The notes under the pieces: generated by a model | The model's database searches: none | What the model was told of the DNA's origin: nothing | What the model saw: the letters and a program-made list of their open reading frames with translations, nothing else | Shown: positions 1,966 to 35,522 of the stretch, piece after piece | How positions within the stretch are numbered: the stretch's first letter is position 1 | How the letters are laid out: each line of letters starts with the position of its first letter | Position numbers and translations under genes: made by a program | DNA from: a virus | Virus record (IMG/VR): IMGVR_UViG_3300028920_000032 | Coordinates: 32,001 to 96,000 of that record | Length of the DNA stretch: 64,000 nt | Direction: 5' to 3' (one strand)

Positions 1966-1994
1966 TTATTTGTTCCCTCACCATTAAAAAATAT

Positions 1995-2321
1995 TTATAA
2001 ATTCTTAAAGAATGTTATTATGAATTCATGTTTATTTTTAAATAAATTATTTAATTTATTTTTATTTAATTTAAATAATCCTGAAAATGGACTTTTTTGA
2101 TCACATTTTATAAAAGTTCCGTTCACTCCCATAGTATACCTATTGTTAAAATAATTATTTTCACTAAATATATATGTAAAATTATAATGTGGTATCAGAG
2201 GACCATACCCATCCTCCCTTGCGTCTATTATACCATTGTATCTCATAATTGTTATAGTGCCTCTACTGCGTCCGCCATCATAAAAATAATATAATTCACC
2301 TTTTTTAATATCTTTGATCAT
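1995..2321 (-). CDS. Hypothetical protein with C-terminal KHEFIITFF tag
   Basis: ORF with SD-like GAGAGGAAG upstream; no family recognised. Confidence 0.6.
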   Translation of the reverse strand: MIKDIKKGELYYFYDGGRSRGTITIMRYNGIIDAREDGYGPLIPHYNFTYIFSENNYFNNRYTMGVNGTFIKCDQKSPFSGLFKLNKNKLNNLFKNKHEFIITFFKNL

Positions 2322-2339
2322 ATTATTCTTCCTCTCATT

Positions 2340-2816
2340 TTATTCAAATATACTCTTTATCAATTTATAATAATCTTTATGTTCAATAGGCCAACCATTT
2401 GTATTTATATAAAATTCAAAATTATTTATTCTAGCTAAAGCTCTGCCTTCTTTGAAATTGCCAACATCATCATAAATTATAGGCGTTGTCACTTTGCCAT
2501 TTAGATCAATATGGCCATATTTACCATTTTTCTGCTGGACCCAAGCTCTGCCTTCAGAGAAATAGCCAACATCATCATAAATTATTGGCGTTGTTATATT
2601 GCCATTTAGATCAACATGACCACATTTGCCATTTTTCTTAACCCAAGCTCTGCCTTCTTGGAAATAGCCAACACTATCATAAACTATAGGCGTTGTCACT
2701 TTACCATTTAGATCAACATGACCCTCTTTACCATTTTTCTGGACCCAAGCTCTGCCTTCATTGAAATAACCAATGTTATCTAAATTTAATTTTTTCTTTA
2801 TTTGTTCTTTAGTCAT
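2340..2816 (-). CDS. WG (KWG-Leptospira-type) repeat protein, paralog A
   Basis: Tandem ~35-aa repeats FxEGRAWVxKNGKxGHVDLNGKVTTPIIYDDVG. Confidence 0.9.
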   Translation of the reverse strand: MTKEQIKKKLNLDNIGYFNEGRAWVQKNGKEGHVDLNGKVTTPIVYDSVGYFQEGRAWVKKNGKCGHVDLNGNITTPIIYDDVGYFSEGRAWVQQKNGKYGHIDLNGKVTTPIIYDDVGNFKEGRALARINNFEFYINTNGWPIEHKDYYKLIKSIFE

Positions 2817-3184
2817 TTAAACAAACCTTTTATCAATTTATAAAAATCTTTGTGTTCAATAGGCCAACCATTTGTATTTATATAAAATTCAAAATCATTT
2901 ATTCTAACCCAAGTTCTGCCTTTATAGAAATTGCCAACATCATCATAAATTATTGGCGTTGTCATTTTACCATTTAGATCAACATGACCCTCTTTACCAT
3001 TTTTTTCAACATAAGCTCTGCCTTCATAGAAATCGCCAACATCATCATAAACTATAGGTGTTGTCACTTTACCATTTAGATCAACATGACCATATTTGCC
3101 ATTTTTTACAACTATTGCTCTGCCTTCTTGGAAAGAGCCAACGCCATCTAAATTTAATTTTTTCTTTATTTGTTCTTTGGTCAA
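2813..3184 (-). CDS. WG repeat protein, paralog B (TTG start)
   Basis: Same repeats and same N-/C-caps as paralog A. Confidence 0.9.
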   Translation of the reverse strand: MTKEQIKKKLNLDGVGSFQEGRAIVVKNGKYGHVDLNGKVTTPIVYDDVGDFYEGRAYVEKNGKEGHVDLNGKMTTPIIYDDVGNFYKGRTWVRINDFEFYINTNGWPIEHKDFYKLIKGLFK

Positions 3185-3189
3185 ATCTC

Positions 3190-3555
3190 TTACATACCTT
3201 CTGGAATATCATAATTTAAAGTTATTTCTTCAGTTTCAGTGTTATCAATTCTTTGAGTATATAGATGTATTCTTAAAGCATGGTCTTCTTCTATATATTC
3301 AGTTTGAACTTCAATAATTTTTATTCTAGTTTCTATTTCAGCTAATTTACTATGTATTTCTACTGCTAAATCTTGTAAAGTATCTGCAGTTATTGGCATA
3401 AAGACTTTGTTTCTCATTCCTACACCAAATGTTGGCCTCATTACACGTTCACCTGGAGTAGTCATAAGTATTCTTATTATTGATTCATAAATTAAATCTT
3501 TGCCTTGTTTAATAGAAAACCAATTTTTGTTATAGAAGCCAATGCCCCTAGCCAT
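3190..3555 (-). CDS. Baseplate wedge protein, gp25-like
   Basis: ESIIRILMTTPGERVMRPTFGVG...ETRIKI motif. Confidence 0.92.
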   Translation of the reverse strand: MARGIGFYNKNWFSIKQGKDLIYESIIRILMTTPGERVMRPTFGVGMRNKVFMPITADTLQDLAVEIHSKLAEIETRIKIIEVQTEYIEEDHALRIHLYTQRIDNTETEEITLNYDIPEGM

Positions 3556-3594
3556 TTTATCTTCCTTGAGAGTACAATTGTACTCTACAATCAG

Positions 3595-3607
3595 TTTTAA
3601 TTATCTT
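3595..3607 (-). promoter_or_regulatory. Putative late promoter AAGATAATTAAAA upstream of gp25
   Basis: Exact 13-mer also at 25616-25628 (-) and 43153-43165 (+), always upstream of a gene in the matching orientation. Confidence 0.65.
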
Positions 3608-3633
3608 TGAAGTTATTATAAATAGGTTTGTTT

Positions 3634-6600
3634 TTATGTCGGTAAATCTACTGGTCTTATCCCTTCAACTATATTAGAATATTCGCTTTCTCTAACAATT
3701 CTTCCAGCTACAACTTCTACGGCTTTTACTTTATAATATTCTGGAACTCCAATAAGAGCTCCAGTGCCAGAAGCTGCTTTTGCTAAGCCATCAGTGAATA
3801 AATCTAGCCAATTTGTACCAAATGTACCTTTTGTAATACTTATTGTTGCCCTTTCACCCTTAGCATTGCTAGTAAATTTAATTCGATAAAATATACCATC
3901 ATGAGGATGTTCTAATTCAACTAGTTCACAAGTTAGATTATTTAAACCATTTCCAAAAGCTGTATTAAGACTATTTACCATGTTTTGACAAGTCCATGTC
4001 CCCGATGCTGGTGATGTAATATAATATTGATAAATAGTTGGCAAATATGTATCTTCTGCTGTAACCATAACAATTAAATAATATCTTATATTTGCTGTAT
4101 AATCAGTATCAGCAATTCCATCGCTTGTTGAAGAAAAAGAATCTAATAAATATTGTTCAGCAGGATATTGATCTATAAAAGTTATATTAGTTTCTATATA
4201 TTCATTTCCATCATCCTGTGAAACATAACTAAATGGGGAAGTTTCAGCAGGAGCTTTATATATTACATAACCATTTGCGCCAGATAAAGAATTCCAATTT
4301 AGTGTAACTTTTTCTTTATCTGTTGTTGTAGCTGTTAATGTAATAGTTTGCCACAATCTTTTACCATTTGAATTTTCAGTTATTTCTGACATTTCTGATT
4401 CATATTCTATAGTTAAATTATTTGAATCATCATAGTATTCATATTCACTTGAATCAGCAACGGCTGTAATTCTATACCAGTATGCTAATCCTGGGAGAGC
4501 ATTTGTATCTTCATAATAAGTATTTGTCGTATTATCAATTAAAATATATCCACTAGTTCTTAATGTTGATCTATAAATATAATATTTAGATGCATTAACA
4601 GCAGCATCCCATTCTATTCTAGCATGTAAACTACTTGGGGTTACGCCATTATCGTGTATTCCGCCAACTTTTATATTTTCTGGAGGATTCCAAAGTATAG
4701 CTCCAGTTTCACCATGAGTTGTTTTATCTCCACTATATTCTTCACTATGCCACTGTGACATACTATCCCAATCTTTGTCATTTATTGTACCACCACCAAG
4801 TGTAACATCACCACTGGCACTCCATCCATTATCAACTTGTATACGATAATAATAAATTTTACCTTCTTCTAAATTAGTGACACCAGCAACTGCACTGTCT
4901 GGCGTTGTACTTAATGCTGTAAATAGATCAATTCCTACTGTACCAGCTGTTAATGCGATGGATGAGGAGCTTCCATATGTGTTGGATGTAATTCTTATAT
5001 CAGTACTTTCAATAGTCGAACTAAATCCATATTCTTCTTCTTCAGCAAGTTCATTTATTATATTTGCTAATGCTTCCCAAGATTGACAATCAGCTCCAAT
5101 CAATACTATTTCAATTGCACTAGCTCCATCAACTGAAACTTTAAAACTATATTGCGTCATATTATTATTAAGCGGAGGAGTAGCATTAAGATCTGCAAAA
5201 TTTAACCCAAATTCTTGATAACCTTGATAAGCCGCTATGTCTTCTAATATATTTCTAGGATTTTGGAAGAAATCATAATTTGGTGGATCACCTGGATCAG
5301 TATAATCATATTGTGATGAATTACCATAAGGAGTTGTAAATGTATTCCATGATCCATTTTGACCTTCTTTTCTTTCAATTCTATAGCTAGAAGCAGAAAC
5401 TACAGAATCCCACTCTAAAATAATCCTGTCTGATTCCGTCGTAGATATTGTTATATTTAATGGAGATATGTCATAAGTTTTAGCATTGGTTATTACATTA
5501 TCCATTAAATCTTCTAAATCTTGAATTTCATTATCTGGAGTTGTTCGTATTGCAGATACATAAGCATCATAATAACCACGATATGCCATAGATAGTGATC
5601 CACTAGTTCTATTTAATCTTTGATTAACAAAATACCATTTCCAATAGTATAATTTACTACCATAAAGTGTGCCAGAATTATTTTCATTAGCTGCTGAATT
5701 TGTTGTTGGTTTCCAAGATTCACTTGAACCAAGTTGGTACCAAGTATCATTTGTAGCATGTTTTCCAAGTAGTTGATATATTTCTTCTCTTCTGTCTGGT
5801 ATGTCCCCAGATTGTGCACCACTATATGAGCTTCCAGAGAAAGCAATTAAAGCATTTAAATGAGTTGTTATTAATGCATCTAAATCATCATCATCCCATC
5901 TTGAATCATTTTCATCCCAGTCATTTGTGGCGGGATCACCTACTGCTGATTTCCAGTTACTTAACCAAGAAGACCAACTTGTATTCATTGTATTTGCTGC
6001 ACTTTTTCCAGGATCTGTTAAGTTTGTTTTCTCGTTTATAACTTCATAATTATATCCAATAATATCATTTAAATCTGATTGAATTGTTGATATAAGGGAG
6101 CTAATTGCATCTATTCTAGTTTCAAATTCTTCATGATATTGACTATATACTGAGCTCCAAATATTTTCACGACCGTCAGAAGCTGTTCCTTTTTTAACTG
6201 TGTCAATCATTGTTGGGTTTTTTATGAATTCTCTTTCAGCATCAAGATCTTCATCACTAAGATCTCCATCACCAGGAGTTGGCCAATAAGCATCAGTATA
6301 TGTATAATTCCACTGATATGGACTAATTCCACTATATGATGCACTATCAATATATATTATCCACCCTTCATCTGTAGCAGATGCGTCATATACTGCATAC
6401 CACCCTTCTCCAGCTAAAGGGTCTGGATCTCCCGCTCCACATGATATATGAAAAGATCCAGTAGTTGTACCTGAATGACCGGCAATTATCTCTGTATATT
6501 CTGAAGATGTTCCATTACCTGTTCCCCAATATGTATATCTCATTCTTTCAAATGGACTTGGGCTAGTTTCTGGCGCGCCAGCATCAATATCATCTATACC

Positions 6601-7296
6601 ATAATCTCCTAATGTTGAATCTAATCTAGTAAAGCCTGCATCTACATGAGTTGTATATGAATCTATTAAAATATTTGTTCTATAAACCCATCTACCATCA
6701 TATATAATTTTTCCCCAAAGTAAATTATTCTCGTCACCATAATGTTCTAATGGTTCTTTCATAGTAAAGTTCGAACCTGTTTCAAATGGGTTGGCTGCAT
6801 TTGTATATACTGTGCTTGGTTCAGCATTAATCCAAGCTACATCATCATCTGAGCCTAAGCTACTATATTTTTGATTTAGCAATACAAATGGATGTCTTTG
6901 GTATGGAACTTCTTTAGCATTAAATCTCATATATTCATAAGTGCTTAAAGTAGATATGTCAGTAAAAAAGAATTCTTCTTGTTGTCTTGATGCATCTGCA
7001 TTTTGCCACCATGTATTTGTTGGTGGTATATTAGGAGGATCATTAGTTTCACTTGGAGATAAATTAGCGGCTGAATCATAAACATAACCAATCATATGTT
7101 TAAGTTCATCATAGTGTTCAACTATTAAATCATTTATATGTTTATAGCAAGCTTCTAACAAATATGTTTCTGGTTGTCCAGTTGAAATAGTTCCATCTCC
7201 GTCTATGATATCTGTATAATATTCATAATTAGTGATTCCATTATAATATTTTTGTATTAAGTTTGCGCGTTGTTCTTTTTGACTTTCAGCTTCCAT
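3634..7296 (-). CDS. Large virion/baseplate-associated protein with fibronectin type III-like repeats
   Basis: Repeated LxW..V..A..YxIxR and Y(W/Y)YRI motifs; lies in the baseplate module. Confidence 0.65.
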   Translation of the reverse strand: MEAESQKEQRANLIQKYYNGITNYEYYTDIIDGDGTISTGQPETYLLEACYKHINDLIVEHYDELKHMIGYVYDSAANLSPSETNDPPNIPPTNTWWQNADASRQQEEFFFTDISTLSTYEYMRFNAKEVPYQRHPFVLLNQKYSSLGSDDDVAWINAEPSTVYTNAANPFETGSNFTMKEPLEHYGDENNLLWGKIIYDGRWVYRTNILIDSYTTHVDAGFTRLDSTLGDYGIDDIDAGAPETSPSPFERMRYTYWGTGNGTSSEYTEIIAGHSGTTTGSFHISCGAGDPDPLAGEGWYAVYDASATDEGWIIYIDSASYSGISPYQWNYTYTDAYWPTPGDGDLSDEDLDAEREFIKNPTMIDTVKKGTASDGRENIWSSVYSQYHEEFETRIDAISSLISTIQSDLNDIIGYNYEVINEKTNLTDPGKSAANTMNTSWSSWLSNWKSAVGDPATNDWDENDSRWDDDDLDALITTHLNALIAFSGSSYSGAQSGDIPDRREEIYQLLGKHATNDTWYQLGSSESWKPTTNSAANENNSGTLYGSKLYYWKWYFVNQRLNRTSGSLSMAYRGYYDAYVSAIRTTPDNEIQDLEDLMDNVITNAKTYDISPLNITISTTESDRIILEWDSVVSASSYRIERKEGQNGSWNTFTTPYGNSSQYDYTDPGDPPNYDFFQNPRNILEDIAAYQGYQEFGLNFADLNATPPLNNNMTQYSFKVSVDGASAIEIVLIGADCQSWEALANIINELAEEEEYGFSSTIESTDIRITSNTYGSSSSIALTAGTVGIDLFTALSTTPDSAVAGVTNLEEGKIYYYRIQVDNGWSASGDVTLGGGTINDKDWDSMSQWHSEEYSGDKTTHGETGAILWNPPENIKVGGIHDNGVTPSSLHARIEWDAAVNASKYYIYRSTLRTSGYILIDNTTNTYYEDTNALPGLAYWYRITAVADSSEYEYYDDSNNLTIEYESEMSEITENSNGKRLWQTITLTATTTDKEKVTLNWNSLSGANGYVIYKAPAETSPFSYVSQDDGNEYIETNITFIDQYPAEQYLLDSFSSTSDGIADTDYTANIRYYLIVMVTAEDTYLPTIYQYYITSPASGTWTCQNMVNSLNTAFGNGLNNLTCELVELEHPHDGIFYRIKFTSNAKGERATISITKGTFGTNWLDLFTDGLAKAASGTGALIGVPEYYKVKAVEVVAGRIVRESEYSNIVEGIRPVDLPT

Positions 7297-7307
7297 ATAT
7301 TATTTCC

Positions 7308-7772
7308 TTAAGAAGTTTTTACTTTATCTGAAGCAGTTGTAATTTTTCCTTTTACTTTTGTTGGAAGTAAAGGTTTAAGTGCACCGAATAATGCCGCAAC
7401 TACTGGGCTTGGTGCATTTGGCGGATGTGGAGTAGCTAAGTTTGTTTGAAGTGTACTAACTAAAGCTTCCATAAAAGACATGAATTGAGAATCTGTAGTC
7501 ATATCAATTGTTATCTCATCATCTTTTCTTGCAATGCCTTTTAATTGTCCGCCACAGTTTAATTTAATTTCGGGTGCTTTTATTTCTGCAGTCTTTGAAT
7601 TATCTTTAACTAATATATCATTAATGACAATTGCTATAGCTTCTAATAATTCTATGATAGTAGGCGCGTTTTTAGCCATCTCATTTCTTACTGGATTCAT
7701 GTTGAAACCTTTCTTCTCAGCTTCATCTTTTAATTTACTAAAAATGACATCTTTATCAAATATTTTAGCCAT
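7308..7772 (-). CDS. Putative baseplate spike C-terminal/tip-like protein
   Basis: IARKDD...GKITTASDKVK resembles spike-tip segments; downstream of the gp5-like gene. Confidence 0.45.
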   Translation of the reverse strand: MAKIFDKDVIFSKLKDEAEKKGFNMNPVRNEMAKNAPTIIELLEAIAIVINDILVKDNSKTAEIKAPEIKLNCGGQLKGIARKDDEITIDMTTDSQFMSFMEALVSTLQTNLATPHPPNAPSPVVAALFGALKPLLPTKVKGKITTASDKVKTS

Positions 7773-7784
7773 TATATTTTCTCC

Positions 7785-8705
7785 TTAATACTCACTCTCT
7801 ACTGAATCTAAAGCTTCCATTGCAGTTGATATACTATCAAGTGGAGTTGCCGCCACTGGGTAACCACCAAAGAAATCATAGACCGTACTACCAAATGCAG
7901 CCGGACCTAGTTTTTCTAACATGAATGATAAAAGTAACATTCCATATTTTACTGATGCTTCTTCAGGATTAGATACAAATTCTTGTAATATAGTTACTAT
8001 CAATGTTATCTGATCAACCTGTGGTTGAACACTAGCTAATTTTGTTGCTATGTCTGCTAACGCACTTTGTACTATAGGTGAATTAGGACCTAGAAATTTT
8101 GACAATATTGCTTTTGGTGTAGCAGCAATTGCTGATGGTAATTTAATAAGTGTCTCAATTAAATAACTAGCCATATCAATTAATGCAGTAGTAATAGCAC
8201 CAGTTTCTGTACCATTAAACCAGTATGCTAAAATGGTATCAGGTGTCATTGATTGTCTAGTCATTGAAAACGAATAAGCCCAAACATCATCCATATTTAT
8301 TGTTGTCACAGCAGTTGAACTTTTTCTACCCGATTCAGTAGTAGCTGACATTGTTACTTCTACTGGTGTTTCATCTTCAGTGTCATCTCTATCTGCCCAA
8401 CCATGTACTTGAGTAATTTCTGTTAGTGGAAACTTTTCATTATATATTTTATATGACATGCCATCAATTGTAGAGGTAGTCTTAAAATTATTCTCTTTAA
8501 TAAATCTAAATTCATAAACTCTTTCTGCAGGGTTATTAAGAGCGTTAGCAACTAGTTGTTGAACTCTTGGATCATTTCTTTCTAATGCTTCCATTTCTTC
8601 TGTTGGCGTATATCCTTTAATAACAAGTGTTAATCGGTCTGGAAATTGTTCTTCAGGAATTCGAATTATTAATTTTTTAAATTTATTTGTATTAACATTA
8701 GCCAT
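7785..8705 (-). CDS. Hypothetical protein in baseplate module
   Basis: 306-aa ORF in operon. Confidence 0.6.
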   Translation of the reverse strand: MANVNTNKFKKLIIRIPEEQFPDRLTLVIKGYTPTEEMEALERNDPRVQQLVANALNNPAERVYEFRFIKENNFKTTSTIDGMSYKIYNEKFPLTEITQVHGWADRDDTEDETPVEVTMSATTESGRKSSTAVTTINMDDVWAYSFSMTRQSMTPDTILAYWFNGTETGAITTALIDMASYLIETLIKLPSAIAATPKAILSKFLGPNSPIVQSALADIATKLASVQPQVDQITLIVTILQEFVSNPEEASVKYGMLLLSFMLEKLGPAAFGSTVYDFFGGYPVAATPLDSISTAMEALDSVESEY

Positions 8706-8711
8706 TAAACA

Positions 8712-9620
8712 TTAACCCCCAACAATAGTCTTTGTAGATCCTACATGTGTTTGCATGCATGTGAATGGACATATACAATTTGATGTTACTACACCGGCAG
8801 CTCCAAATTCACCAGGAGGCCCAACTACTAATGTTTCTCCATCGATTTTTACAACTAATCCATTTATATTAATTGATCCATTTTCTAAACTTTGAATATT
8901 TATTTGACACTTATCAGAACCTTTTATATTTATAAATCCTTCTTTAACTGATAACTCATCTCCCAATGCAGATTTCATTGTTATTCCACTGTCATCTATT
9001 GTGATCTCATGCACTCTTCCATCAGCTGTTCTAACTCCTAAAACAAGTGCACCATCTCTTAATGATACATATGAAGAAGATGATGTTGAAGTAGTAATTC
9101 CGAATGGTTCATACTCATAATCTAATTGATTTTTGTGGATGAGTTCCATCTTTGATTCATTTATAACAATTAAATTTTCTACCGAATTACTATCAGATTG
9201 AGTATCTGGATTGTCAATAGAAGGATACTGTGTTTTTAATATTATAGTTGTTGGATCGTTATTTGCTTCAGCAGGTATACTAGGTACTGTTTCAACAACA
9301 GGATATCCAACTGAATCACTTGCTTCTTCATTTATCTTTTTTAATGGTGCAAATGGATAAGCTCCAATCCATACTGGGAAATTAGAATTTCCATTTTCAA
9401 ATATAACATAACCATCAGCATGAATAGGTGGAAGCATGAAAAAACCCATACCAGACAAGCCACCATATGGTGTCAATACGGGACACCATGTATGTGATTC
9501 TTCGTTATAATTGAGTACACCATCTCTTTGATATATATGCACTAATATTTTATTCATTCCCGTTGGGTCATTGTTATCTAAACATTTTGCTCTATATATA
9601 CCAAACAATTTATTTTCCAT
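8712..9620 (-). CDS. Baseplate hub/spike protein, gp5/VgrG N-terminal OB-fold
   Basis: LFGIYRAKCLDNNDPTGMNKILVHI...GFFMLPP...VIFENGNSNFPVWIG. Confidence 0.85.
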   Translation of the reverse strand: MENKLFGIYRAKCLDNNDPTGMNKILVHIYQRDGVLNYNEESHTWCPVLTPYGGLSGMGFFMLPPIHADGYVIFENGNSNFPVWIGAYPFAPLKKINEEASDSVGYPVVETVPSIPAEANNDPTTIILKTQYPSIDNPDTQSDSNSVENLIVINESKMELIHKNQLDYEYEPFGITTSTSSSSYVSLRDGALVLGVRTADGRVHEITIDDSGITMKSALGDELSVKEGFINIKGSDKCQINIQSLENGSININGLVVKIDGETLVVGPPGEFGAAGVVTSNCICPFTCMQTHVGSTKTIVGG

Positions 9621-9631
9621 ATTAACTATCC

Positions 9632-9964
9632 TTATATTAATATTCCTATTAAAGTATTATAATCTGGTATTAAAATTGACCTATCAACATAGAAATCTTT
9701 AGGATGCCACAAATAATTATATCCCATTATTACCCAAAATAAATATGGTGTACCATAATGAAGATTTGAGATATTGTCAGGCCTATATTCATATTTTGCT
9801 TCTATTTTCCAAGCTTCAGAAGCGACATTCGATCTTATACGATTTAGTAGTGTAAAATTCTTTTTACCAAGTCGCATTACTTTTATGTCACTATCATAGA
9901 TAGTAAAATATTGTCTTAATCTAGAATATATATTATTAGTAGGTACTTCGCCTTCTTTAGCCAT
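9632..9964 (-). CDS. gp53-like LysM-type baseplate wedge protein
   Basis: YRPDNISNLHYGTPYLFWVIMGYN...SILIP. Confidence 0.8.
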   Translation of the reverse strand: MAKEGEVPTNNIYSRLRQYFTIYDSDIKVMRLGKKNFTLLNRIRSNVASEAWKIEAKYEYRPDNISNLHYGTPYLFWVIMGYNYLWHPKDFYVDRSILIPDYNTLIGILI

Positions 9965-9982
9965 CTTTTACTCCTTGTTATA

Positions 9983-12520
9983 TTATTGTGGTGCCCATAA
10001 TAATACTTCATTATCTGTAACCGCTGGACCGATTTCAATAAGAGAAACTGAAATTACAATATTAGAATAATGTCTTTCATTTGCACCTATTATCCCACCC
10101 TTGTATTCAAAGCTAACGTTTTCACATAGCCACAATGATCTCATAGAATGAAATTTATAACCACCACTACTTAGTGAAAACCAATTTGTTCTGAATGTTG
10201 GATGTGATTCATTCAATTGACTATTATTTGAATCTTCAATCATTCCCGTAGAAGATCCTGTAGTATTCTCTAATCCTCCATACCAAACTTGTACAATTGG
10301 CGTCCCAAGTTTATATTTTGGATCTGACATGTTTGGTAATACCAAATTGCGAAAATTTCTTATTAGATAATTATAAATATATTCTTCAGTCCAATTTTTC
10401 ATTCCCATTGAGCTTATTGAATTACCAGATTCACCTAAATGATTATTGCCTGTTACTAGATATTCTAATTCTAAACCAATCTTTCTTTCATTACTATATT
10501 TATATACTTGAGCGGGAGTACTTCTTGCTAATGTAGAAATAGCAGAATAAGAAGCACCTTTGCTTTCTCCACTTATTTTAGGCTCAAACTGAAACGGTAA
10601 ATAGCAAATCTCATTTTGAGATGTTTGAAATTTCATACTTCTTTTAGTATATATTTTTAAATATCCAACATTTTCTGGATGATTAGATATACTTAAGTAA
10701 CTTCTATTTGAGTGATAATCACTTCTTTGATTTTCTCTATTTTTTTCTAAATCTGTTGTTTCTATTTTATTAGAATCTCTTTTATAATAATCAGATCTTC
10801 TATTTGATTCTGCTGTATTTAAAGCATCAGCAAGTTGAGCATTGGGTCTATCTGCTTCAAACGAATTGAAATCTTCTTTATTATACTGAGAGAAGTCTTT
10901 GTATGTTTCAACCATAGATAATTTATTTTGTAATTGTGCTCCGATATATTTTGTGGCAAATTCTTTTGCATATCTAAATGATTTAGCCGCTGAAAATAAA
11001 ATATCAACTATGGCACTTACAAGTGGCACATTTGGAGTATCGCCAATTACTCGTGAAATTATATTTGATGGTTTTACCTGAGTGACTATATTTTTTTCTG
11101 TTTTATTTATTTCTATGCCAACATCAATTTGATCTTTATTTACTTTTTCAGAAGGATTGTCTGATATTTGTATGATAGAAGAAGCTTCTTCAGGATCAGC
11201 AGTATTTATTTCGCCAGGCTCTTTAAAAACAGTTGGATTTAAAACTCCTGTTGATTTTGAGCTTTTGTCAATATCTGTATTGATGCTTGATCTAGTCTTT
11301 TCAGTCTTTTCGTCTGGTGAATCTAATTCGTTTATAAATTTCTCAACTACATCTTCAGCTGATTCAATATTATTAATATTCTTTTCATTTTTGTTTGCTG
11401 TTTCTTCTAAATTATTTATTAATTTAGAAGACTCTTGATCAGTTATGTCTAATTCTATTTGTTGCTTTGTTTCTTCAATTGCTGCTGTAGTAATTTCGTT
11501 TGGTGTTTTTTCATCACCTTTATCAGCAAGACTTATATTATTAACTAATTTATCATCTGTGTCTACTGAATCAATATTATTTCGTTCTTTTTCAGATTTA
11601 TTCAATTGGTTTTCTAAGACTTTGTTTTCATCTACATTTTTTCTGTTAATTAGTGAAGTATCATAACTATCGATTTTTGAAGCTTCATCATCCTTTAATT
11701 TTTTATTTACAATTGAAGATTCAATGTGTTCATTAATACTATCACTAGATTTATTAATGAAATCAGGAAATTCCCCTATTCCATAAACTCTTTTATCTGT
11801 TTTATCTTCAGATTCAGGGACGCTGCTTATATTCTTCTCATCTTTCTCAACTAATGTATCAACTGCTTGTTCACTCTTTCTTGTAGTAATATTTAGTTCT
11901 GCGATAGTTTGTGATTCTTTTTCATCTATAATAGTAGACGGTATAGATTCTATGTTTTTCTTTTGACTTAATGGTGTAATATCAATTTCTTGAGTACCTT
12001 TTTCTACTCTATCAGGGAAAATAAAATAATAATATTCTTTTAGTTGTTTTGCTAATAAAGAGAAAATAATATCAGTCATTATTTTTCTTGATGCGTCATT
12101 TGGCATATCAATTTGGTCGGATATTTTTTCTGTCCCTTTAATAACACTAATTGAATCATTAAGTAATTTAATTGTTTTGTCTAAGTTTTGATTACTTATT
12201 TCATTTATTTTTTTTCTGCTTATGTCTCCATAGTCTTGTGTTCTACTTGGAGTCTGTATGTTTAAAGATTCACCAGCTGCACTTGCTATAATACTACTAG
12301 CTTTTTCAATTTTATTAGACACATCATTGAATAAATATACAGAAGTTGTTTTATCAGCTTTACGTAAAGTATATAAAAGATTGCGTATTTCTGTTAAAGT
12401 TTTTATATTTGCTTGTTGTGGTGTGATAACAGCATCTGCAATTTTTTCTAATAAATTGTTTACAGTTGAGTTTACATCAATTATTTCTTTTGATTTAGTT
12501 GGTTCTTTTTTAATATCCAT
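9983..12520 (-). CDS. Protein with long acidic low-complexity N-terminus and C-terminal tube-initiator-like (gp48/gp54/CIS tube) domain
   Basis: C-terminal LPFQFEPKISGESKGASYSAISTLARSTPAQVYKYSNERKIGLELEY; between tape measure and LysM genes. Confidence 0.55.
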   Translation of the reverse strand: MDIKKEPTKSKEIIDVNSTVNNLLEKIADAVITPQQANIKTLTEIRNLLYTLRKADKTTSVYLFNDVSNKIEKASSIIASAAGESLNIQTPSRTQDYGDISRKKINEISNQNLDKTIKLLNDSISVIKGTEKISDQIDMPNDASRKIMTDIIFSLLAKQLKEYYYFIFPDRVEKGTQEIDITPLSQKKNIESIPSTIIDEKESQTIAELNITTRKSEQAVDTLVEKDEKNISSVPESEDKTDKRVYGIGEFPDFINKSSDSINEHIESSIVNKKLKDDEASKIDSYDTSLINRKNVDENKVLENQLNKSEKERNNIDSVDTDDKLVNNISLADKGDEKTPNEITTAAIEETKQQIELDITDQESSKLINNLEETANKNEKNINNIESAEDVVEKFINELDSPDEKTEKTRSSINTDIDKSSKSTGVLNPTVFKEPGEINTADPEEASSIIQISDNPSEKVNKDQIDVGIEINKTEKNIVTQVKPSNIISRVIGDTPNVPLVSAIVDILFSAAKSFRYAKEFATKYIGAQLQNKLSMVETYKDFSQYNKEDFNSFEADRPNAQLADALNTAESNRRSDYYKRDSNKIETTDLEKNRENQRSDYHSNRSYLSISNHPENVGYLKIYTKRSMKFQTSQNEICYLPFQFEPKISGESKGASYSAISTLARSTPAQVYKYSNERKIGLELEYLVTGNNHLGESGNSISSMGMKNWTEEYIYNYLIRNFRNLVLPNMSDPKYKLGTPIVQVWYGGLENTTGSSTGMIEDSNNSQLNESHPTFRTNWFSLSSGGYKFHSMRSLWLCENVSFEYKGGIIGANERHYSNIVISVSLIEIGPAVTDNEVLLWAPQ

Positions 12521-12534
12521 TTAATATACCTCAA

Positions 12535-15500
12535 CTATTTTTGTTTAACAAGAATTCCATTTCCAAGTGCAAGGTTTTTAATATTCTTTATGTATGACTC
12601 AGTTCTTGAAGATGCAGATTCTATAACTTGTAAATGCCCTTCTAATGCACTTAATTTATTCATTAATCTGTCTACTTCTTTTGCAAATGATTCTTGAATT
12701 GCAACATTTAATGATCTAGCTATAGACAGCTCTTCTTTTTTTTCTCCAAGTTCAGCATTGAATTCACTTTTTTTGCTTATAAGTCTAATAGGTTTAGCAT
12801 CTTCCATTTGTTTCATGAGTTTTGAAAATTGTTTAGCTGCACTACTTGCTTCACCATTAAATCCAACTAATACGGAAGTAATTGCAGCCATATCAACTGC
12901 AAGTTCAGAAAGTCTTGGAATAGTACTTGGTAATCTAGATAGTGATGTAAATAGTTGTGATAATCCTTGTCCAGCTTTTTGTATTGCACTACCTTTATAC
13001 ATACTCTTCATTATGATTAACAATGGTTCTTTGATATCATTAAGATTTTTTGCAACTGTTATTAAATCTGTTTTCCCGAGAATATATAATCCTATTGCTA
13101 ATTCACTGAAGCCTTGGCCCAAAGCAACTAATATTTTAGGATCCATTGAATACATACCCTCTTGTGCTTTAAGCATTTCAGATAAGAATTTTCCAATACC
13201 CTCAGCTGATTTTGACATAGTTCCGCTTAAACTTTCTAGTTGGTCAGCAGATTGTTGCAATACATATATACCAATTGCTAAAGCTTGAAATCCTTCACCC
13301 GTTCTTTGAATATTTTCAAACCAGCCTGTATGTGCTTTTAATGCTTCTAATAGTCCACTTACAAAATTAACAATTGGAATAAATCTTGAACCAGAAAAAG
13401 ACTCAATCATTCTAGTAAGATCTTCACTTGCTAATGTTTTTATACCTTCTGCTAATGCTTTAAACCCTTCTCCTGCATTTTTCATATTACCAATAAATGG
13501 CCCAACACTTATTGCTTCAATAGCTTTTTTAAGACCATCAAAACTAGCAGAGATTGCAGATGTTCTTTGAACTTCACTAAGAGTTTTTACAGCTTCTGAC
13601 AATATATAAAAACCTATTGCTAGATCTGTTAAATTTTGAGAAAACAATTTGAATTTACTTTTGTCTTTTACTGCACTTAACATTTCATTAATTGCTTCTC
13701 CAAATTCTTGAAGTGGTTTAATTAGTCCCACAAATTTAGTTTTTATTGTATCAGCAATTTCAGCAAAGAAAGCTAATCCTTTCCCCATTTCCATTATGTT
13801 GTCTGCTATTAACATAAATCCTAAACCAATTGCCGCTATTGCAATTCCTAAAACCAATAAAACACCTGCCATTGCTGCCATTCCTGCTAGTGCAATTGCA
13901 CCTACTGGTGTCATAAAGAAATAGCCTAATGCAACTAATCCTGCAACAAATATTGCAAGTATTGCAGCTGCTATTAATATTTGTTGCCATGGTTGTGAAG
14001 CTAAAAATCCAATACCAGTTGCAATTAAAAATATAGCAGCTCCTACTGCTAACATTACTAAAGCAGCACCAGCCATTTGTAGAAACATTTTTAAACCTGC
14101 GCCTACAGATTGAGTAAATGTTCCCATACCAGCAGCTGCTCCTCCGGCTACATTTCCCACGTTTGCAATTTTACTTGCTAAATTTCCAAGAAATCCAAGA
14201 ATTGGAGGTCCCAATTTCCATACAACTAAGAAAGCAATTATATATGGCACTGCTTTTTGTAAGAAGCTTATAACATTGCCAATTCCTTCACCTACGCTTT
14301 TGAAAAAATTGATTATCTTTTCTGGAGTCAAATTTCTAAAAAATTCCTGAAAACCTCTTGTTGCATTATCAAAAAATGCATCTATTGAATCAGCATTCTT
14401 TAGCCACCATTCGTTTAGCATTTCTAATATATCTGTTATAAATCCAATTATACCAGCAAGACGTTTCCCAAAGAATGCTCCTATCGTATTCATTAGTCTT
14501 TCTAGAGATCCTGACATAGTGGCCATACCTTCAGCAGCCTGCTTTTCAAAAGCTGCTTCACCACTGTCAATCTTTGCAAGCTGTTCACGTCCTTTTTTTG
14601 CTAATCTTAATGCTTCTTGCGCATTATTAAATCCCATCTGTTGAGCTCTAACATTTGCTGCGACGATATTTCCACCTTGTTCAAGAATTCTATTTATTTC
14701 ATCAGCGGCAGTAATCAACCCCTCTGTTAATTTTCGTAGATCAACAGGACCTCCACGTAACATGTCAAGATATTCATGCATATTCATTCCCATCTTCGCG
14801 ACTAATAATGCATTTTCTCCGATTCGTGATGCATCAAATAATTTTTCCATTATTTCATTAGCTCTTCCAGCTGTAAGTCCTAATGCTCCAAACATACCTG
14901 TTAATTTTGCAGTAGCCTCTGTCATGGCTACTATGTCTTGTTCGGCTGCGCCGAATGCTGACATTAGAAGAGTTAATTTACTGACTGTACCAATCATTGC
15001 ACTCATTTCTTGTTCAGTTAATCCAACTGCATCTTGGACTTTAGAAAATGTTCTTAATATACCGCCTGCTCCAACAATTAGTTCTTTACTAACTCCTCCC
15101 ATAACTCTTAGTCTAGCTATCATATCTGTTAATTGTTCTTGGTTGGCACCTAATGCTTTAGCTCCTAAGATTGCATATTTACTCAATTGCTTTAAATCAT
15201 CAAATGGTACTCTCTGTTGAGCTAAAGAAATATATTGGTCTTTTACTGTTTTAATACTTGCAGTAGTTTCAAATGCGACTTCATTTATATCAGACAATGC
15301 TTTAGCCACACGAGTGCCCATACTTTCTGCTTTACCCTCAGCACTTGCAAAACTGCTACTCATCATAGAAAACATGCGCACTAAATCTTTCTGCACGTCA
15401 AACACCATTTCTTTTATGTTCTTCCAGATAGATGCAAATATACCTATTATAGGTATAGCAGCTGCACCAAAAGCATCTTTCATTCTTGCAGCAGTCGTTT

Positions 15501-15723
15501 CAACTATGTTTCGTATACTTTCTATAGGTCTAGTCCAGTCCATTTCTTTTATAGCTTGTTGTATACTTTTTATCTGGTTGATAGCAGCATCGGCACCAGC
15601 TATGGCACCTTTCTCAAATGATTCTCTAATGCCTTTATCAATGCCTTTGGAAGCTTGCTTTAAAGCAGTAGGAGCAAGTTTTTCGAATTGTAATTTTATA
15701 TTTAAAATATGTTCACTAGCCAT
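12535..15723 (-). CDS. Tail tape measure protein
   Basis: 1062 aa, Ala/Gly-rich helical repeats with central hydrophobic segments; tail module context. Confidence 0.8.
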   Translation of the reverse strand: MASEHILNIKLQFEKLAPTALKQASKGIDKGIRESFEKGAIAGADAAINQIKSIQQAIKEMDWTRPIESIRNIVETTAARMKDAFGAAAIPIIGIFASIWKNIKEMVFDVQKDLVRMFSMMSSSFASAEGKAESMGTRVAKALSDINEVAFETTASIKTVKDQYISLAQQRVPFDDLKQLSKYAILGAKALGANQEQLTDMIARLRVMGGVSKELIVGAGGILRTFSKVQDAVGLTEQEMSAMIGTVSKLTLLMSAFGAAEQDIVAMTEATAKLTGMFGALGLTAGRANEIMEKLFDASRIGENALLVAKMGMNMHEYLDMLRGGPVDLRKLTEGLITAADEINRILEQGGNIVAANVRAQQMGFNNAQEALRLAKKGREQLAKIDSGEAAFEKQAAEGMATMSGSLERLMNTIGAFFGKRLAGIIGFITDILEMLNEWWLKNADSIDAFFDNATRGFQEFFRNLTPEKIINFFKSVGEGIGNVISFLQKAVPYIIAFLVVWKLGPPILGFLGNLASKIANVGNVAGGAAAGMGTFTQSVGAGLKMFLQMAGAALVMLAVGAAIFLIATGIGFLASQPWQQILIAAAILAIFVAGLVALGYFFMTPVGAIALAGMAAMAGVLLVLGIAIAAIGLGFMLIADNIMEMGKGLAFFAEIADTIKTKFVGLIKPLQEFGEAINEMLSAVKDKSKFKLFSQNLTDLAIGFYILSEAVKTLSEVQRTSAISASFDGLKKAIEAISVGPFIGNMKNAGEGFKALAEGIKTLASEDLTRMIESFSGSRFIPIVNFVSGLLEALKAHTGWFENIQRTGEGFQALAIGIYVLQQSADQLESLSGTMSKSAEGIGKFLSEMLKAQEGMYSMDPKILVALGQGFSELAIGLYILGKTDLITVAKNLNDIKEPLLIIMKSMYKGSAIQKAGQGLSQLFTSLSRLPSTIPRLSELAVDMAAITSVLVGFNGEASSAAKQFSKLMKQMEDAKPIRLISKKSEFNAELGEKKEELSIARSLNVAIQESFAKEVDRLMNKLSALEGHLQVIESASSRTESYIKNIKNLALGNGILVKQK

Positions 15724-15726
15724 AGT

Positions 15727-17679
15727 TTACCAAGCTTTAATTAATTTTAACGATGTTGTATATTCACCATCTGATATATTGTGACTACAACCTTTTATAC
15801 ATAGATAGTTGCCAGTAATTATATTACTTATTGCATTCTGATTATTTGGCAAAGGTCGATGTATAGTTATCTTAAAATAAGAGTTATATAAATTCACTAA
15901 ATAATCTTGATTTCTGAAATTATTTTGTCCATGAACATTCCATATTGAATTATCTAACCATGGATCTCCTGAAATACTAATACTTACATCAAATATTTCT
16001 TTAGCAAATTTATTCCATACATTTATAACTAATCTTCTACCATCATTTTCTATATCAACTTCATTCCCACCTCTAGAATCATAATTAAATTCTACCTCAT
16101 ATCCTCCGCTAATTCCATCTACATTTTTAACATAATTACCAGCACTTTCTGTTGGTAATGCATCTAAAGCTGTGTTTAAATCAGAGTATTTGGCGGTTAG
16201 TTTATTAGTTTTTGTGTTTTCTCCTTTTACACTGGGATCTGGAGTAGTACCCATACTCCATTTGAGTAGCTCAGAGCTGCTCAAATTTTCTTGGGCCTTT
16301 TTAGCTTCACTTGCTGCATCACCTGTGGACATGTAATATATACTTTTCTTTTCATCATCTGTAGTTTTTTCAAATTCAGTAGCTGTCGATATTACTTTTA
16401 GTTTACCTTCATTAGTAATTGTTATGGCATAAATTTGTGGCAGCCCAAACATATAATATCCTTTTGAAGACCATTCATATGATAAACTATTTATCATAGT
16501 TTGACCTTTAGCTATTTCTTCTTTATTTCCAGGACGATATATAAATGTTCTAGCTAGCCTAAATTTATCTTGAGCTTCTTTATCATCTATAGGTTTTGTT
16601 GGTGGCACTGGCTGCCAACCAAATACCATCCCTGGTTCTTTTGGATATACTCCGTCTCTACCCTCTAATCTAACACCAGCAATCATTACTGCTCTATATC
16701 CTTCTAATTCTAACATGCTAAGAAGTTTTTCTACAACTGATCTAATACCTTCTTTTGCTCCTATAACATATTTATCTTTTGTTTCTTGGTTTATAGGTCC
16801 ACCAATTTTAGTTCCTTCAATTGTTTCATCCCATGTTACTTTTAAATCTTCATTATTATTGTTTTTTGCCCACCATTTTCTTAATACAGTTCTTAACATA
16901 TACCATGGTGTTCTATTATAGAATACATTTTCAATTTCAATATCTGGCTCTGTAGTTGTGCTTTCATTGCTTGAAGCATCTTCAACATAAAAGCCTTTTT
17001 CTCCTAATGTGGTACCGACTGCAGTACCAGCTTTTAAGTCATCATAAAATGGATCTCCAGGTTTTTGACCAAACAATTTTTTTAGTGTTTCATCTAACAC
17101 ATCTTGTTTGGTTATAGTTTTTAATCCGCCTGACGATTGGTTTGCAGGCGGTGTATCTCTTAAATTTAAATTTCCAATTGATGGATCTGGTTCATTATGA
17201 CGACCATTGAATAAGCCTTCTCCTAAATCAATTAGTTCAAATGTAACTTTCAATTCTACTTCATCTAAATCATATCTTAGATCTTTTAATAAATAAGCAT
17301 GTATTCCAGAGTGTTTACCTTGCCCCTTTCCTCCATCGTGAAAATCCACTTGACGTCCATAATATGTCCATCCCCAAAATACTCTACAAAACCAATAACC
17401 ATTTGTTTTTGAAGTTCTATTGGCAATTACTTGAGCTTTAGCAAAGAAAGCTTCTAAATTTACAAAATCTGGATCTACTAAAGTAATTGAAGCTGTTGAA
17501 GATCCGGCATCACTTAATACTTCAAAATTTGCATTTCCAACATAAATTCTATTAGTTGGATTTGGGAAAGTATGTATATATGTAGACCCTCTAAATTGTA
17601 TAGATATAAATGGAGTCATTGGAGAACCAATGTTCTGCCAATCTAGAGTTTTATAAGGCCCAGTTGGTTTATTTGGCAT
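15727..17679 (-). CDS. Baseplate hub, gp27/late-control-D-like
   Basis: C-terminal ISISGDPWL...ITGNYLCIKGCSHNISDGEYTTSLKLIK. Confidence 0.65.
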   Translation of the reverse strand: MPNKPTGPYKTLDWQNIGSPMTPFISIQFRGSTYIHTFPNPTNRIYVGNANFEVLSDAGSSTASITLVDPDFVNLEAFFAKAQVIANRTSKTNGYWFCRVFWGWTYYGRQVDFHDGGKGQGKHSGIHAYLLKDLRYDLDEVELKVTFELIDLGEGLFNGRHNEPDPSIGNLNLRDTPPANQSSGGLKTITKQDVLDETLKKLFGQKPGDPFYDDLKAGTAVGTTLGEKGFYVEDASSNESTTTEPDIEIENVFYNRTPWYMLRTVLRKWWAKNNNNEDLKVTWDETIEGTKIGGPINQETKDKYVIGAKEGIRSVVEKLLSMLELEGYRAVMIAGVRLEGRDGVYPKEPGMVFGWQPVPPTKPIDDKEAQDKFRLARTFIYRPGNKEEIAKGQTMINSLSYEWSSKGYYMFGLPQIYAITITNEGKLKVISTATEFEKTTDDEKKSIYYMSTGDAASEAKKAQENLSSSELLKWSMGTTPDPSVKGENTKTNKLTAKYSDLNTALDALPTESAGNYVKNVDGISGGYEVEFNYDSRGGNEVDIENDGRRLVINVWNKFAKEIFDVSISISGDPWLDNSIWNVHGQNNFRNQDYLVNLYNSYFKITIHRPLPNNQNAISNIITGNYLCIKGCSHNISDGEYTTSLKLIKAW

Positions 17680-18046
17680 TAAATATTTCCTTTATCAATT
17701 TATAAAAATCCTTATGCTCAATTGGTATACCATTTTTGTTTATATGAAATTCTACTTTGTTAATTCTAACACAAGCTCTTCCTACTTCGAAATCAAAAAC
17801 ATCATCATAAATTATAGGCGTTGTAACGTTGCCATTTAGATCAACATGACCCCACTTGTTGCCTTTTATAACCCAAGCTCTGCCTTCATTGAAAAATCCA
17901 ACACCATCATAAATTATAGGCGTTGTTACTTTACCATTTAGATCAACATGACCATATTTATTGTTTTTTAAAACTCGAGCCCTGTTTTCTGAGAAGTTGG
18001 CAATACCGTCTAAATCTAACTTTTTCTTTATTTGTTCACTAGTCAT
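17669..18046 (-). CDS. WG repeat protein, paralog C
   Basis: Same repeats and caps as paralogs A/B. Confidence 0.9.
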   Translation of the reverse strand: MTSEQIKKKLDLDGIANFSENRARVLKNNKYGHVDLNGKVTTPIIYDGVGFFNEGRAWVIKGNKWGHVDLNGNVTTPIIYDDVFDFEVGRACVRINKVEFHINKNGIPIEHKDFYKLIKEIFNAK

Positions 18047-18413
18047 TAAATATCTCTTTTATCAACTTATAATAATCTTTATGTTCAATGGGATAACCAT
18101 TTATATTTATATCAAATCCAAAATTTTTGATTTCAACCCAAGCCCTACCTTCATGGAAATTGCCAATATTATCATAAATTATAGGCGTTGTTACTTTACC
18201 ATTTAGGTCAACATGACCCTCTTTGCCATTTTTCTCAACATAAGCTCTGCCTTCATAGAAATTGCCGGCATCATCATAAATTATTGGTGTTGTTACTTTA
18301 CCATTTAGATCAACATGACCATACTTATTGTTTTTTAAAACTCGAGCCCTGTTTTCTGAGAAGTTTGCAATCCTGTCTAAATTTAACTTTTTCTTTATTT
18401 GTTCACTAGTCAT
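18039..18413 (-). CDS. WG repeat protein, paralog D (start revised to MTSEQ)
   Basis: Same repeats and caps; ATG at 18413 matches the paralog N-termini. Confidence 0.88.
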   Translation of the reverse strand: MTSEQIKKKLNLDRIANFSENRARVLKNNKYGHVDLNGKVTTPIIYDDAGNFYEGRAYVEKNGKEGHVDLNGKVTTPIIYDNIGNFHEGRAWVEIKNFGFDININGYPIEHKDYYKLIKEIFND

Positions 18414-18426
18414 ATGAATATACCAA

Positions 18427-19218
18427 TTATTTAGCAAGATCCCAATCATTACTAATTATATATTTAATAATACTATGATATCTTTGATGTTTGTTTCTTC
18501 CTTCAACAATATGTCCAGTAAGAGTATCAAATTTAATTTCTACATACAGATTATTAAATCTTTCATATCTCGAAAATTTTATTTTATCATCTCTTGTATA
18601 AACACATTCGTTAAAAAAATTAGTCTCAATAATCACTTTACCTTTTTTATCAATTAAGCCATAAAAACGTTGCCAATGTGCATATGCATGTCCTAATTCT
18701 TTAGTGATAACTGCAGTACCATTATAAAATTCTCCAATTTCGTCAAATTGTAAAGGTATTACTAATTTACCATTAAGATTGACACATCCTGTCTTACCAT
18801 CTTTTTTTACCTGTGCCAACCCTTCTTTAAATTCAGATGCAACTGAATCATAAATAAGAGGAGTAGTTACTTTACCATTTCTATCTACATGGCCTTCTTT
18901 TCCATCCTTCTCAACCCTTGCTCTGTCATACGAATAGAATTCACCAACATCATCATAAATTATAGGTGTAATTATTTCTTTAGTTTTTTTAATACAATGT
19001 CCATATTTCTTACCTTTTTGGACTATAGCTATACCATTTTTAGATCTGCCAATACTATCACCTTCACCTTCTATTTTCTTTATTAATTCTTTTTTACTAA
19101 TAGGATCAACTTGTTTCCATTTACGACTCTTACCGGGATTTCTGTTAGGACTCTTAGCTTCATTAATATATAAAATTTCACTTAAATTTAGTTTTTTCTT
19201 TATTTGTTCTCTATTCAT
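18427..19218 (-). CDS. Divergent WG repeat protein, paralog E
   Basis: MNREQIKKKLNL cap plus TPIIYDDVGEF, FKEGLAQVKKDGKTGCVNLNGKLVIP repeats. Confidence 0.85.
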   Translation of the reverse strand: MNREQIKKKLNLSEILYINEAKSPNRNPGKSRKWKQVDPISKKELIKKIEGEGDSIGRSKNGIAIVQKGKKYGHCIKKTKEIITPIIYDDVGEFYSYDRARVEKDGKEGHVDRNGKVTTPLIYDSVASEFKEGLAQVKKDGKTGCVNLNGKLVIPLQFDEIGEFYNGTAVITKELGHAYAHWQRFYGLIDKKGKVIIETNFFNECVYTRDDKIKFSRYERFNNLYVEIKFDTLTGHIVEGRNKHQRYHSIIKYIISNDWDLAK

Positions 19219-19587
19219 TTAAAATATACTCCTTATCAATTTATAAAAATTTTCATGTTTTAATGGATAGCCATCTTTATTTATATAAAATTCAAAATTA
19301 TTTATTTTAGCCCAAGCTCTACCCTTATAGAAATGTTCAACATCATCATAAATTATAGGTACTACTACTTTACCATTTAGATCAACATGACCCTCTTTTC
19401 CATTTTTCCTAACCCAAGCTCTGCCTTCCTGGAAAGAGCCAACAACACCATAAACTATTGGTGTTGTTACTTTGCCATTTTTATCAACATGACCCATTTT
19501 ATCATTTTTCTGGATCCAAGCTCTGCCTTCATAGAAATTGCCAATACCGTCTAAATTTAACTTTTTCTTTATTTGTTCTTTGGTCAT
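19219..19587 (-). CDS. WG repeat protein, paralog F
   Basis: Same repeats and caps. Confidence 0.9.
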   Translation of the reverse strand: MTKEQIKKKLNLDGIGNFYEGRAWIQKNDKMGHVDKNGKVTTPIVYGVVGSFQEGRAWVRKNGKEGHVDLNGKVVVPIIYDDVEHFYKGRAWAKINNFEFYINKDGYPLKHENFYKLIRSIF

Positions 19588-20208: not shown

Positions 20209-20249
20209 AGTATTATCTTTATTGCATATATAATTATTGGGAGGTTTTT

Positions 20250-22957: not shown

Positions 22958-22965
22958 AAAATATA

Positions 22966-35461: not shown

Positions 35462-35522
35462 ACCTCATTTAAAGTTCAAATTTGTTATAATTAGCTTTCG
35501 GTATTGTTTTCTCTATTTCATA

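Follow-up and report, generated by a model that had tools for sequence, protein, structure and literature searches.

A 64,000-nucleotide stretch of phage DNA (bases 32001-96000 of the 158,329-bp IMG/VR record IMGVR_UViG_3300028920_000032, here G000; the stretch itself is called the window) carries six small genes, A to F, built from tandem WG repeats. They probably belong to a lineage-specific, expanded family of capped WG proteins that evolves as a recognition repertoire without a dedicated mutator. The original prediction, drawn from the letters of the window, had described six WG-repeat paralogs in two clusters, with a fixed scaffold and hypervariable positions, as a possible binder library inside the baseplate module. 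All six were recovered as minus-strand open reading frames (ORFs) where predicted (Table 1). Each matches the Pfam family WG_beta_rep (PF14903; gathering score, 25.6 bits) at 77-125 bits, in tandem and with three to four stretches per protein. The 158-kb record holds 19 WG repeat matches, all of them within these genes.

Genes A, B, C, D and F share one architecture. An N-terminal helix, MT(K/S)EQIKKKL(N/D)LD, is followed by two to three full units of 34 amino acids (aa), a modified last unit (..GRAxxxINxFEFYINxNGxPIEH..) and a C-terminal helix ending in (F/Y)YKLI(K/R)x(I/L)F. The common N- and C-caps described for five paralogs were thus confirmed, but the repeat length of 105 bp was not: Tandem Repeats Finder gave a period of 102 bp, corresponding to a 34-residue unit, and unit A3 alone has 35 codons. 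The core said to recur about nine times nearly unchanged does so. The 20-mer GGTCATGTTGATCTAAATGG was found eight times exactly and 11 times at up to two mismatches, one per full unit, with none expected. Gene E carries the shared N-terminal motif, an insert of ~45 aa, three to four divergent WG units and a different C-terminal region of ~90 aa. The ORF of gene D stays open to 18449, and an internal ATG at 18413, which aligns with the family-wide N-terminus, is most likely its start; the same 124-aa form is also called on an ENA contig (P0002).

Variation within the repeat was examined across 26 aligned units, 11 from the window and 15 from five further genes. Shannon entropy reached 1.5 bits or more solely at unit positions 1, 4, 6, 11, 13 and 18, while eight positions were invariant and most remaining ones nearly so. 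The predicted residue sets hold at all four sites (before F, after F, after GRA and before GH); positions 1 and 13, absent from that list, are also highly variable. Six of the 34 codons hold 107 of 182 inferred replacement changes (~59%, by parsimony on the unit tree), and the variation is thus concentrated rather than evenly spread. The residue combination at positions 4, 6, 11, 13 and 18, rich in W, Y, Q, E, N and S, is unique in 25 of the 26 units. Position 18, the name-giving W before G, is occupied by E (nine units), Y (seven), W (five), C (three), M (one) or F (one); in distant WG repeats it is mostly Y or W. The variable W before G is a peculiarity of this subfamily and not a failure of the hidden Markov model match.

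The ratio of replacement to synonymous change (omega) was 0.26 for the 28 scaffold codons. For the six variable codons it was 1.6 on a tree built from all codons and 2.1 on a tree built from scaffold codons. On both trees, change at positions 1 and 4 was faster than neutrality predicts (P 1.5e-4 and 4e-3 or lower); at positions 6 and 18 it was so on one tree only. On this crude count, which takes no account of recombination, diversifying selection may act at positions 1 and 4 and perhaps at 6 and 18, while 11 and 13 are compatible with neutrality. Unit pairs with a proportion of synonymous differences (pS) below 0.1 in the scaffold already reach a proportion of replacement differences (pN) of ~0.40 in the variable codons. 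Several rare codons are frozen in the scaffold: TTC for F5 (25 of 26 units, against 17% of Phe codons genome-wide), ACG for T29 (19 of 26, against 3%), GGC for G8 (22 of 26, against 10%) and CTA for L23 (16 of 21, against 11%). Because the units have these rare codons in common, their synonymous sites are not saturated. All copies except one relic keep open frames.

The family extends well beyond the window. A search for relatives returned one other viral contig only, IMGVR_UViG_3300028920_000056 (G001; 89,628 bp); its five WG genes fall into three loci (G/H, I/J and K). A tblastn comparison of its other ORFs with G000 gave three matches that are short and weak, spanning 53-126 aa at 35-39% identity, and an overlap of the contig ends, the right end of G000 (158203-158329) being the exact reverse complement of the last 127 bp of G001. 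An overlap of 127 bp is usual between neighbouring contigs in a k=127 assembly graph. The GC contents are equal (30.0% and 29.8%), gp23-type capsid and terminase genes are found on G001 only, and one ORF runs continuously across the join. Together, these four features argue that G000 and G001 are very probably one T4-like phage genome of ~250-270 kb. The alternative of G001 as an unrelated phage with only WG genes in common, through horizontal transfer, was dropped in view of the exact overlap and the complementary genes.

A further seven WG genes are packed into 6.6 kb of a 22,807-bp contig from the same metagenome (L016). This contig is linked to G000 and G001 by two ENA contigs: one of 96,958 bp repeats the gene order of the window and also carries P0001, and one of 139,411 bp carries P0007, P0010 and gene J of G001. 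On this assembly the family would comprise 11 WG genes on the two joined contigs and, with the third, ~18 genes at nine loci in a genome of ~270 kb. The left end of the G000 record, outside the window, contains a giant gene, a stop-free frame of 4528 codons (1466-15049, minus strand), after which the WG-rich 22.8-kb contig appears to come.

Comparison of the units points to a history of shuffling. The best DNA match of every one of the 26 units lies in another gene, often at another rank (A1-H3, 94% identity; B2-G3, 93%; C1-D1, 94%; F1-G1, 89%). Gene D is a mosaic, with an N-cap and unit 1 that are 97% and 94% identical to those of C, and a unit 2 that is 91% identical to B2 compared with 76% to C2. 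Mean unit identity within genes (0.80) is close to that between genes (0.79). Units are evidently exchanged within and between loci, judging from these alignments. Unit number also varies, with one, two, three or four full units giving proteins of 88, ~123, ~157 or ~190 aa, and three tandem WG pairs have the same 4-nt stop/start overlap after ..KLIKGLFK.

Differences between strains are in line with this. A 14-codon relic of a deleted WG gene (MKYYYKLIKVIFND and a stop) lies directly upstream of gene K (G001 55440-55488; L002 ~9955-10003), and a strain-variant contig (L021) has an intact 88-aa WG gene at this position. In small contigs of co-occurring strains, identity to G001 is 93-100% across the flanks but drops to 68-85% in the WG genes. 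Gene content differs as well, with three genes versus two at the G/H locus, and genes of 88 and 122 aa versus the relic and a 190-aa gene at the K locus. Given the near-identical flanks, this divergence and these differences in gene number mark the WG loci as hot spots of change in the population. Change at strain level arises mostly via exchange among copies.

AlphaFold2 models were obtained for proteins B and K, with predicted local distance difference test (pLDDT) values of 96.6 and 94.0. In both, each unit is predicted to form four strands, and a helix lies at either end of the protein. All fold matches were to beta-propeller blades, mainly the 8-bladed BamB and designed propeller fragments, along with 7- to 9-bladed domains, at modest scores (template modelling score 0.45-0.51, Z 5-6.9). 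The 3-blade and 5-blade models align with segments of larger rings and were therefore read as open arcs. Each unit is thus predicted to form one beta-propeller-like blade, and the blades an open arc. A sequence search of the PDB with gene A gave a chance hit only, and no solved WG structure was found by sequence. Strand register was set by the two-residue turns at E-G and N-G in the B model. When the variable residues are mapped in this register, as the original prediction had proposed, positions 4, 6, 11, 13 and 18 would point to one side of the sheet, together with conserved R9, H20 and D22, while F5, A10, V12 and V21 would point to the opposite side.

The AAT-to-NNT pattern of the variable codons had been considered compatible with adenine mutagenesis by a diversity-generating retroelement (DGR), in which a reverse transcriptase (RT) copies a template repeat (TR) into the WG genes with adenine-specific errors. 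For the sequence at hand this mechanism is refuted. No RVT_1 match was found at E up to 1 in the 158,329-bp and 89,628-bp records, the 22.8-kb contig and small gaps being outside the search, and Avd is absent from the 158-kb record. A blastn search with the units returned no extra or non-coding copy outside the WG genes of the two records. The lack of an RT or template repeat, seen first in the window, therefore holds for both records. The adenine pattern is also wrong: 19 alignment columns are invariant A, including those of an AAA AAT GGT AAA run (the fixed K-N-G-K codons) beside variable codons, and 13 of the 53 variable columns never contain A. The codon before F, predicted to be NNT throughout, is NNT in nine of the 11 window units and AAC in two. 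Its NNT look is explained by codon bias, since across the genome 77-96% of NNY codons carry a terminal T; at other variable codons the third base varies among G, A and T. The variation is, moreover, spread across 18 complete genes and not confined to one variable repeat facing one TR. The NNT look and the ~10-15% of the genome still unsampled are what speaks for a DGR, and we give it next to no credence.

A second explanation, the original prediction's binder library inside the baseplate, would make the WG proteins a virion-borne set: anchored on the baseplate or fibres through the conserved helices, they would serve as interchangeable modules for receptor binding or adhesion. As predicted, cluster 1 is located between gp25- and gp6-like genes, identified by PF04965 and by phrog_219 with 39% identity to the gp6-like gene of relatives, and is tightly packed there: gene B begins 5 nt past the gp25 stop, and the start of gene A overlaps the stop of gene B by 4 nt. 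Cluster 2 overlaps the first of three large unassigned genes upstream of gp53/gp5, and gene K is located 1.3 kb upstream of a head-tail adaptor gene. The wider description of the family as inside the baseplate module did not hold, however, as 12 of the ~18 paralogs are outside structural genes, among small non-structural ones. Neighbours at the other WG loci include genes for a cytidyltransferase, a cupin-like protein, thymidylate kinase, uracil-DNA glycosylase, RlaP and the head-tail adaptor. In three relatives (L007, L008 and L009) with gp25 43-54% identical and a gp6-like gene 39% identical, gp25 is followed directly by gp6, and no WG repeats were found anywhere in their 82-131-kb records. 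Because gp25 and gp6 are adjacent in these WG-free relatives, genes B and A and a 108-aa ORF beside them form an insertion, and the WG genes are best regarded as accessory insertions rather than parts of the baseplate. The proteins have no fibre-like or trimerisation region, and no conserved partner gene accompanies them. The 108-aa, 224-aa and 433-aa neighbours were tried as members of such a cassette and rejected, having no counterpart beside other WG loci. We consider a virion-borne set unlikely.

The possibility that the WG genes are selfish cargo, spread with an HNH homing-endonuclease cassette and of no benefit to the phage, finds some support in an HNH gene ~950 bp upstream of cluster 2, which may be linked to this cluster. 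A general HNH linkage was rejected, an HNH gene being within 1 kb at cluster 2 only, and no endonuclease was seen among the ORFs examined beside cluster 1 or the G/H, I/J and K loci. The low scaffold omega and the intact frames point to a role for the protein itself, making selfish spread very improbable. Neutral change is harder to dismiss. On this account a robust, recently duplicated scaffold lets exposed positions drift (omega ~1), with no selection for diversity. It draws on positions 11 and 13, on the variability of several of these positions in all WG repeats, and on synonymous rates that may be underestimated in a 30% GC genome. Neutral drift does not readily account for rare synonymous codons that stay frozen while neighbouring variable codons differ at two to three bases, nor for positions 1 and 4, which exceed its expectation on both trees. 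Unit exchange would also homogenise unselected sites, yet nearly all signatures are distinct, and frames are open in all copies but the relic. Neutral drift thus seems unlikely, though we place it above a selfish cassette, and this in turn above a DGR, all three being less likely than the recognition repertoire.

In the preferred reading, that of a recognition repertoire, the WG proteins would be small and cytoplasmic, with one to four full units and the modified last one set between the N- and C-terminal helices. The scaffold would be kept near-identical, including its rare synonymous codons, as units are duplicated in tandem, gained, lost and swapped in register, both inside a locus and from one locus to another. 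Selection would be purifying on the scaffold while favouring diversity on one face, and four to six codons of each unit would change faster than synonymous sites. Each unit would then display a different surface, as 25 distinct five-residue signatures in 26 units suggest. The genes would be co-transcribed with the operon at their landing site, in this window the baseplate operon of gp25 and gp6. Ligand binding by the variable face is inferred from the pattern of variation and from bacterial WG arrays, which are appended to other domains like a generic binding module. The targets may be variable host molecules, probably intracellular host proteins (defence or takeover targets); these are favoured because most copies lie among non-structural accessory genes and the baseplates of relatives are WG-free.

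Several points weigh against this reading. The omega above 1 was obtained by parsimony from an alignment of 102 nt and a poorly resolved tree, and the family recombines; positions 11 and 13 exceed the neutral expectation on neither tree. In 23 distant bacterial WG units, positions 1, 4, 11, 13 and 18 again belong to the more variable part of the repeat, and variability ranks correlate between the two sets (Spearman 0.45, first 22 positions); part of the pattern therefore comes with the fold. The one-sidedness of the variable positions derives from the secondary structure of the model and is not a measured surface. Two of the nine loci are in or beside baseplate genes, and the single genome is pieced together from contig overlaps and bridges rather than read from a closed sequence.

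A broader and more speculative picture, which we rate as rather unlikely, joins this repertoire to the C-terminal helix. The phage would carry a self-renewing, germline-like repertoire of ~18 mini-propeller binders, in which unit shuffling between loci keeps producing specificities against fast-changing host proteins, and the C-terminal helix would act as a common address tag. This tag (YKLIKxIF-like) would send a class of accessory proteins to one destination, for example a virion dock for co-injection or a common hub of the host or phage. A WG-like C-terminal motif (hydrophobic-I/L-K/R-x-I/L-F in the last 14 residues) ends 25 small ORFs in G000 and G001. Of these, 15 are non-WG, with ~1 per contig expected from the motif rate inside the same ORFs. 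Examples are found at 132023-132226 and 87208-87546 in G000, and at 12057-12362, 13138-13437, 22825-23040, 32044-32292, 35240-35521 and 58304-58714 in G001. The motif may be a shared tag of accessory proteins. Nine tandem ~100-aa ORFs of another family occur directly upstream of gp25 in the distant relative L008 (IMGVR_UViG_3300008516_000190; 3364-6001), several of which start with MADYYKWY and end in ..NLIEEMF or ..NLIDDIF, a tag-like C-terminus. These tandem paralogs at gp25 suggest that the baseplate flank is a general landing place for accessory genes.

To our knowledge, the WG repeat is widespread in bacteria and phages and has neither a known function nor a solved structure, and our search for literature on WG repeats in phages or on phage repeat multigene families found nothing relevant. 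Bacterial WG_beta_rep proteins, many from Bacteroidota, have the same 34-35-residue repeat at 35-52% identity. Long arrays predominate among them, frequently joined to kinases, TonB_C, BlaR1-type peptidases or SLH, whereas the phage proteins are minimal (88-190 aa), capped by the MTxEQIKKKLNLD and YKLIKxIF helices and present as ~18 paralogs in one phage. An uncapped 284-aa protein with eight near-identical WG units (..KWGHV(D/N)(L/V)NGKVTTPLEYDDVGYF..) is encoded beside a DNA methylase and an AAA ATPase on L024 (Ga0272442_10000999; 5683-6537 of 43.7 kb, 39% GC). It is 58% identical to the phage family, is the nearest non-capped relative and may be a clue to the origin of the family. A 5,461-bp contig (L005; JGI 3300076123) has three small WG proteins (131, 198 and 130 aa) among small unassigned genes; these share a different C-terminus (..LPKLRKHRLPNII(D/N)SIS) and constitute another capped family of mini-WG proteins.

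Mechanistically, the nearest parallel is the HNWD (het-d/het-e) family of WD-repeat proteins in Podospora anserina (PMC1805685, PMC2873952). This family has ~10 paralogs with variable repeat number; across ten genes the repeats evolve in concert, both inside a locus and from one locus to another, and four codons per repeat on the interaction surface of the propeller are under positive diversifying selection (PMC1805685). Propeller-type repeats, cross-locus exchange, variable unit number and a few fast codons are thus common to both, with ~18 paralogs, one to four units and four to six fast codons in the phage. The two families are not homologous (WD40 versus WG). The fungal repeats form a closed 7-bladed ring in large proteins of the NOD-like receptor (NLR) type, with effector and NACHT domains and a role in allorecognition, while the phage proteins would be stand-alone open arcs with no mutator like repeat-induced point mutation.

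Other recognition systems share part of this design. DGR targets such as Mtd of Bordetella phage BPP-1 offer the likeness of a phage protein with a fixed scaffold and few hypervariable positions. The WG family differs in having no RT, template repeat or adenine specificity and no C-type lectin or Ig fold, and its diversity is stored in many germline copies rather than generated in a single gene. Designed ankyrin repeat proteins (DARPins) and lamprey variable lymphocyte receptors (VLRs) are similar in combining an N-cap, a variable number of near-identical modules and a C-cap with few variable surface positions per module, in genes that are mosaics of units. Here the difference lies in an ankyrin or leucine-rich repeat solenoid as opposed to propeller-like blades, and no somatic assembly is evident in the WG family.

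The features of the window are collected in Table 1. Gene F abuts both gene E and the upstream 224-aa gene with zero gap, and cluster 2 sits at the upstream edge of the tail/baseplate block. Its neighbours had been labelled gp2-like and hub-like. These labels were not verified, the 650-aa and 224-aa genes matching nothing in Pfam, PHROGs, the PDB or GenBank phages; the 650-aa gene has no match in IMG/VR either. The gp6-like gene has a 1585-aa frame in the full record and is 39% identical over 424 aa to a 748-aa gene of L007, with no match in GenBank phages. A DNA-level search against phage records gave no match.

Table 1. WG genes of the window and the genes flanking them (positions within the window)
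Feature	Position	Strand	Description
WG gene A	2340..2816	-	158 aa; three full units; PF14903 E 1.3e-36
WG gene B	2813..3184	-	123 aa; TTG start; two full units; PF14903 E 2.6e-22
WG gene C	17669..18046	-	125 aa; two full units; PF14903 E 9.4e-22
WG gene D	18039..18413	-	124 aa from internal ATG; PF14903 match
WG gene E	18427..19218	-	263 aa; PF14903 E 6.8e-33
WG gene F	19219..19587	-	122 aa; two full units; PF14903 E 6.4e-24
gp6-like baseplate wedge gene, N-terminal part	1..1965	-	phrog_219; downstream flank of cluster 1
108-aa ORF	1995..2321	-	no family match; with B and A fills the gp25-gp6 space
gp25-like baseplate wedge gene	3190..3555	-	PF04965 E 2.7e-15; phrog_43; upstream flank of cluster 1
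650-aa gene	15727..17679	-	directly downstream of cluster 2; 11-nt overlap with C
224-aa gene	19588..20262	-	directly upstream of cluster 2; no match
HNH endonuclease gene	20537..20920	-	phrog_589 E 2e-18; upstream of cluster 2

Signals around the two clusters were also surveyed. The F-Y-I-N codons of the last unit spell the T4 late-promoter octamer TATAAATA in four WG genes, at 2402-2409, 2875-2882, 18104-18111 and 19278-19285 (minus strand), 58-81 nt upstream of the start of the next gene. The octamer is not enriched across the window (21 found versus 19 expected). A scan for sigma-70-type promoters and terminators around cluster 1 (1900-3700) stayed at background level, and neither Rfam nor tRNA searches returned anything in 1-22000. 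A perfect 13-bp tandem repeat, AAGCTGTAAAAGG, is present in 2.5 copies (20456-20487) in the 275 bp that separate the HNH gene from the 224-aa gene.

The phage family amounts to a natural mutational scan of the WG repeat, marking its scaffold residues against the five or six of a probable binding face. Its evolutionary regime is clear and unusual for a phage. It indicates that a phage protein family can be diversified by the route of fungal NLR WD repeats, exchange among copies and selection, with no dedicated mutator. It also cautions that small genes inside structural operons need not be structural parts. If the targets are host defence or surface molecules, the WG proteins would represent a counter-measure of a new class in phages and, for binder engineering, a compact scaffold that comes naturally capped.

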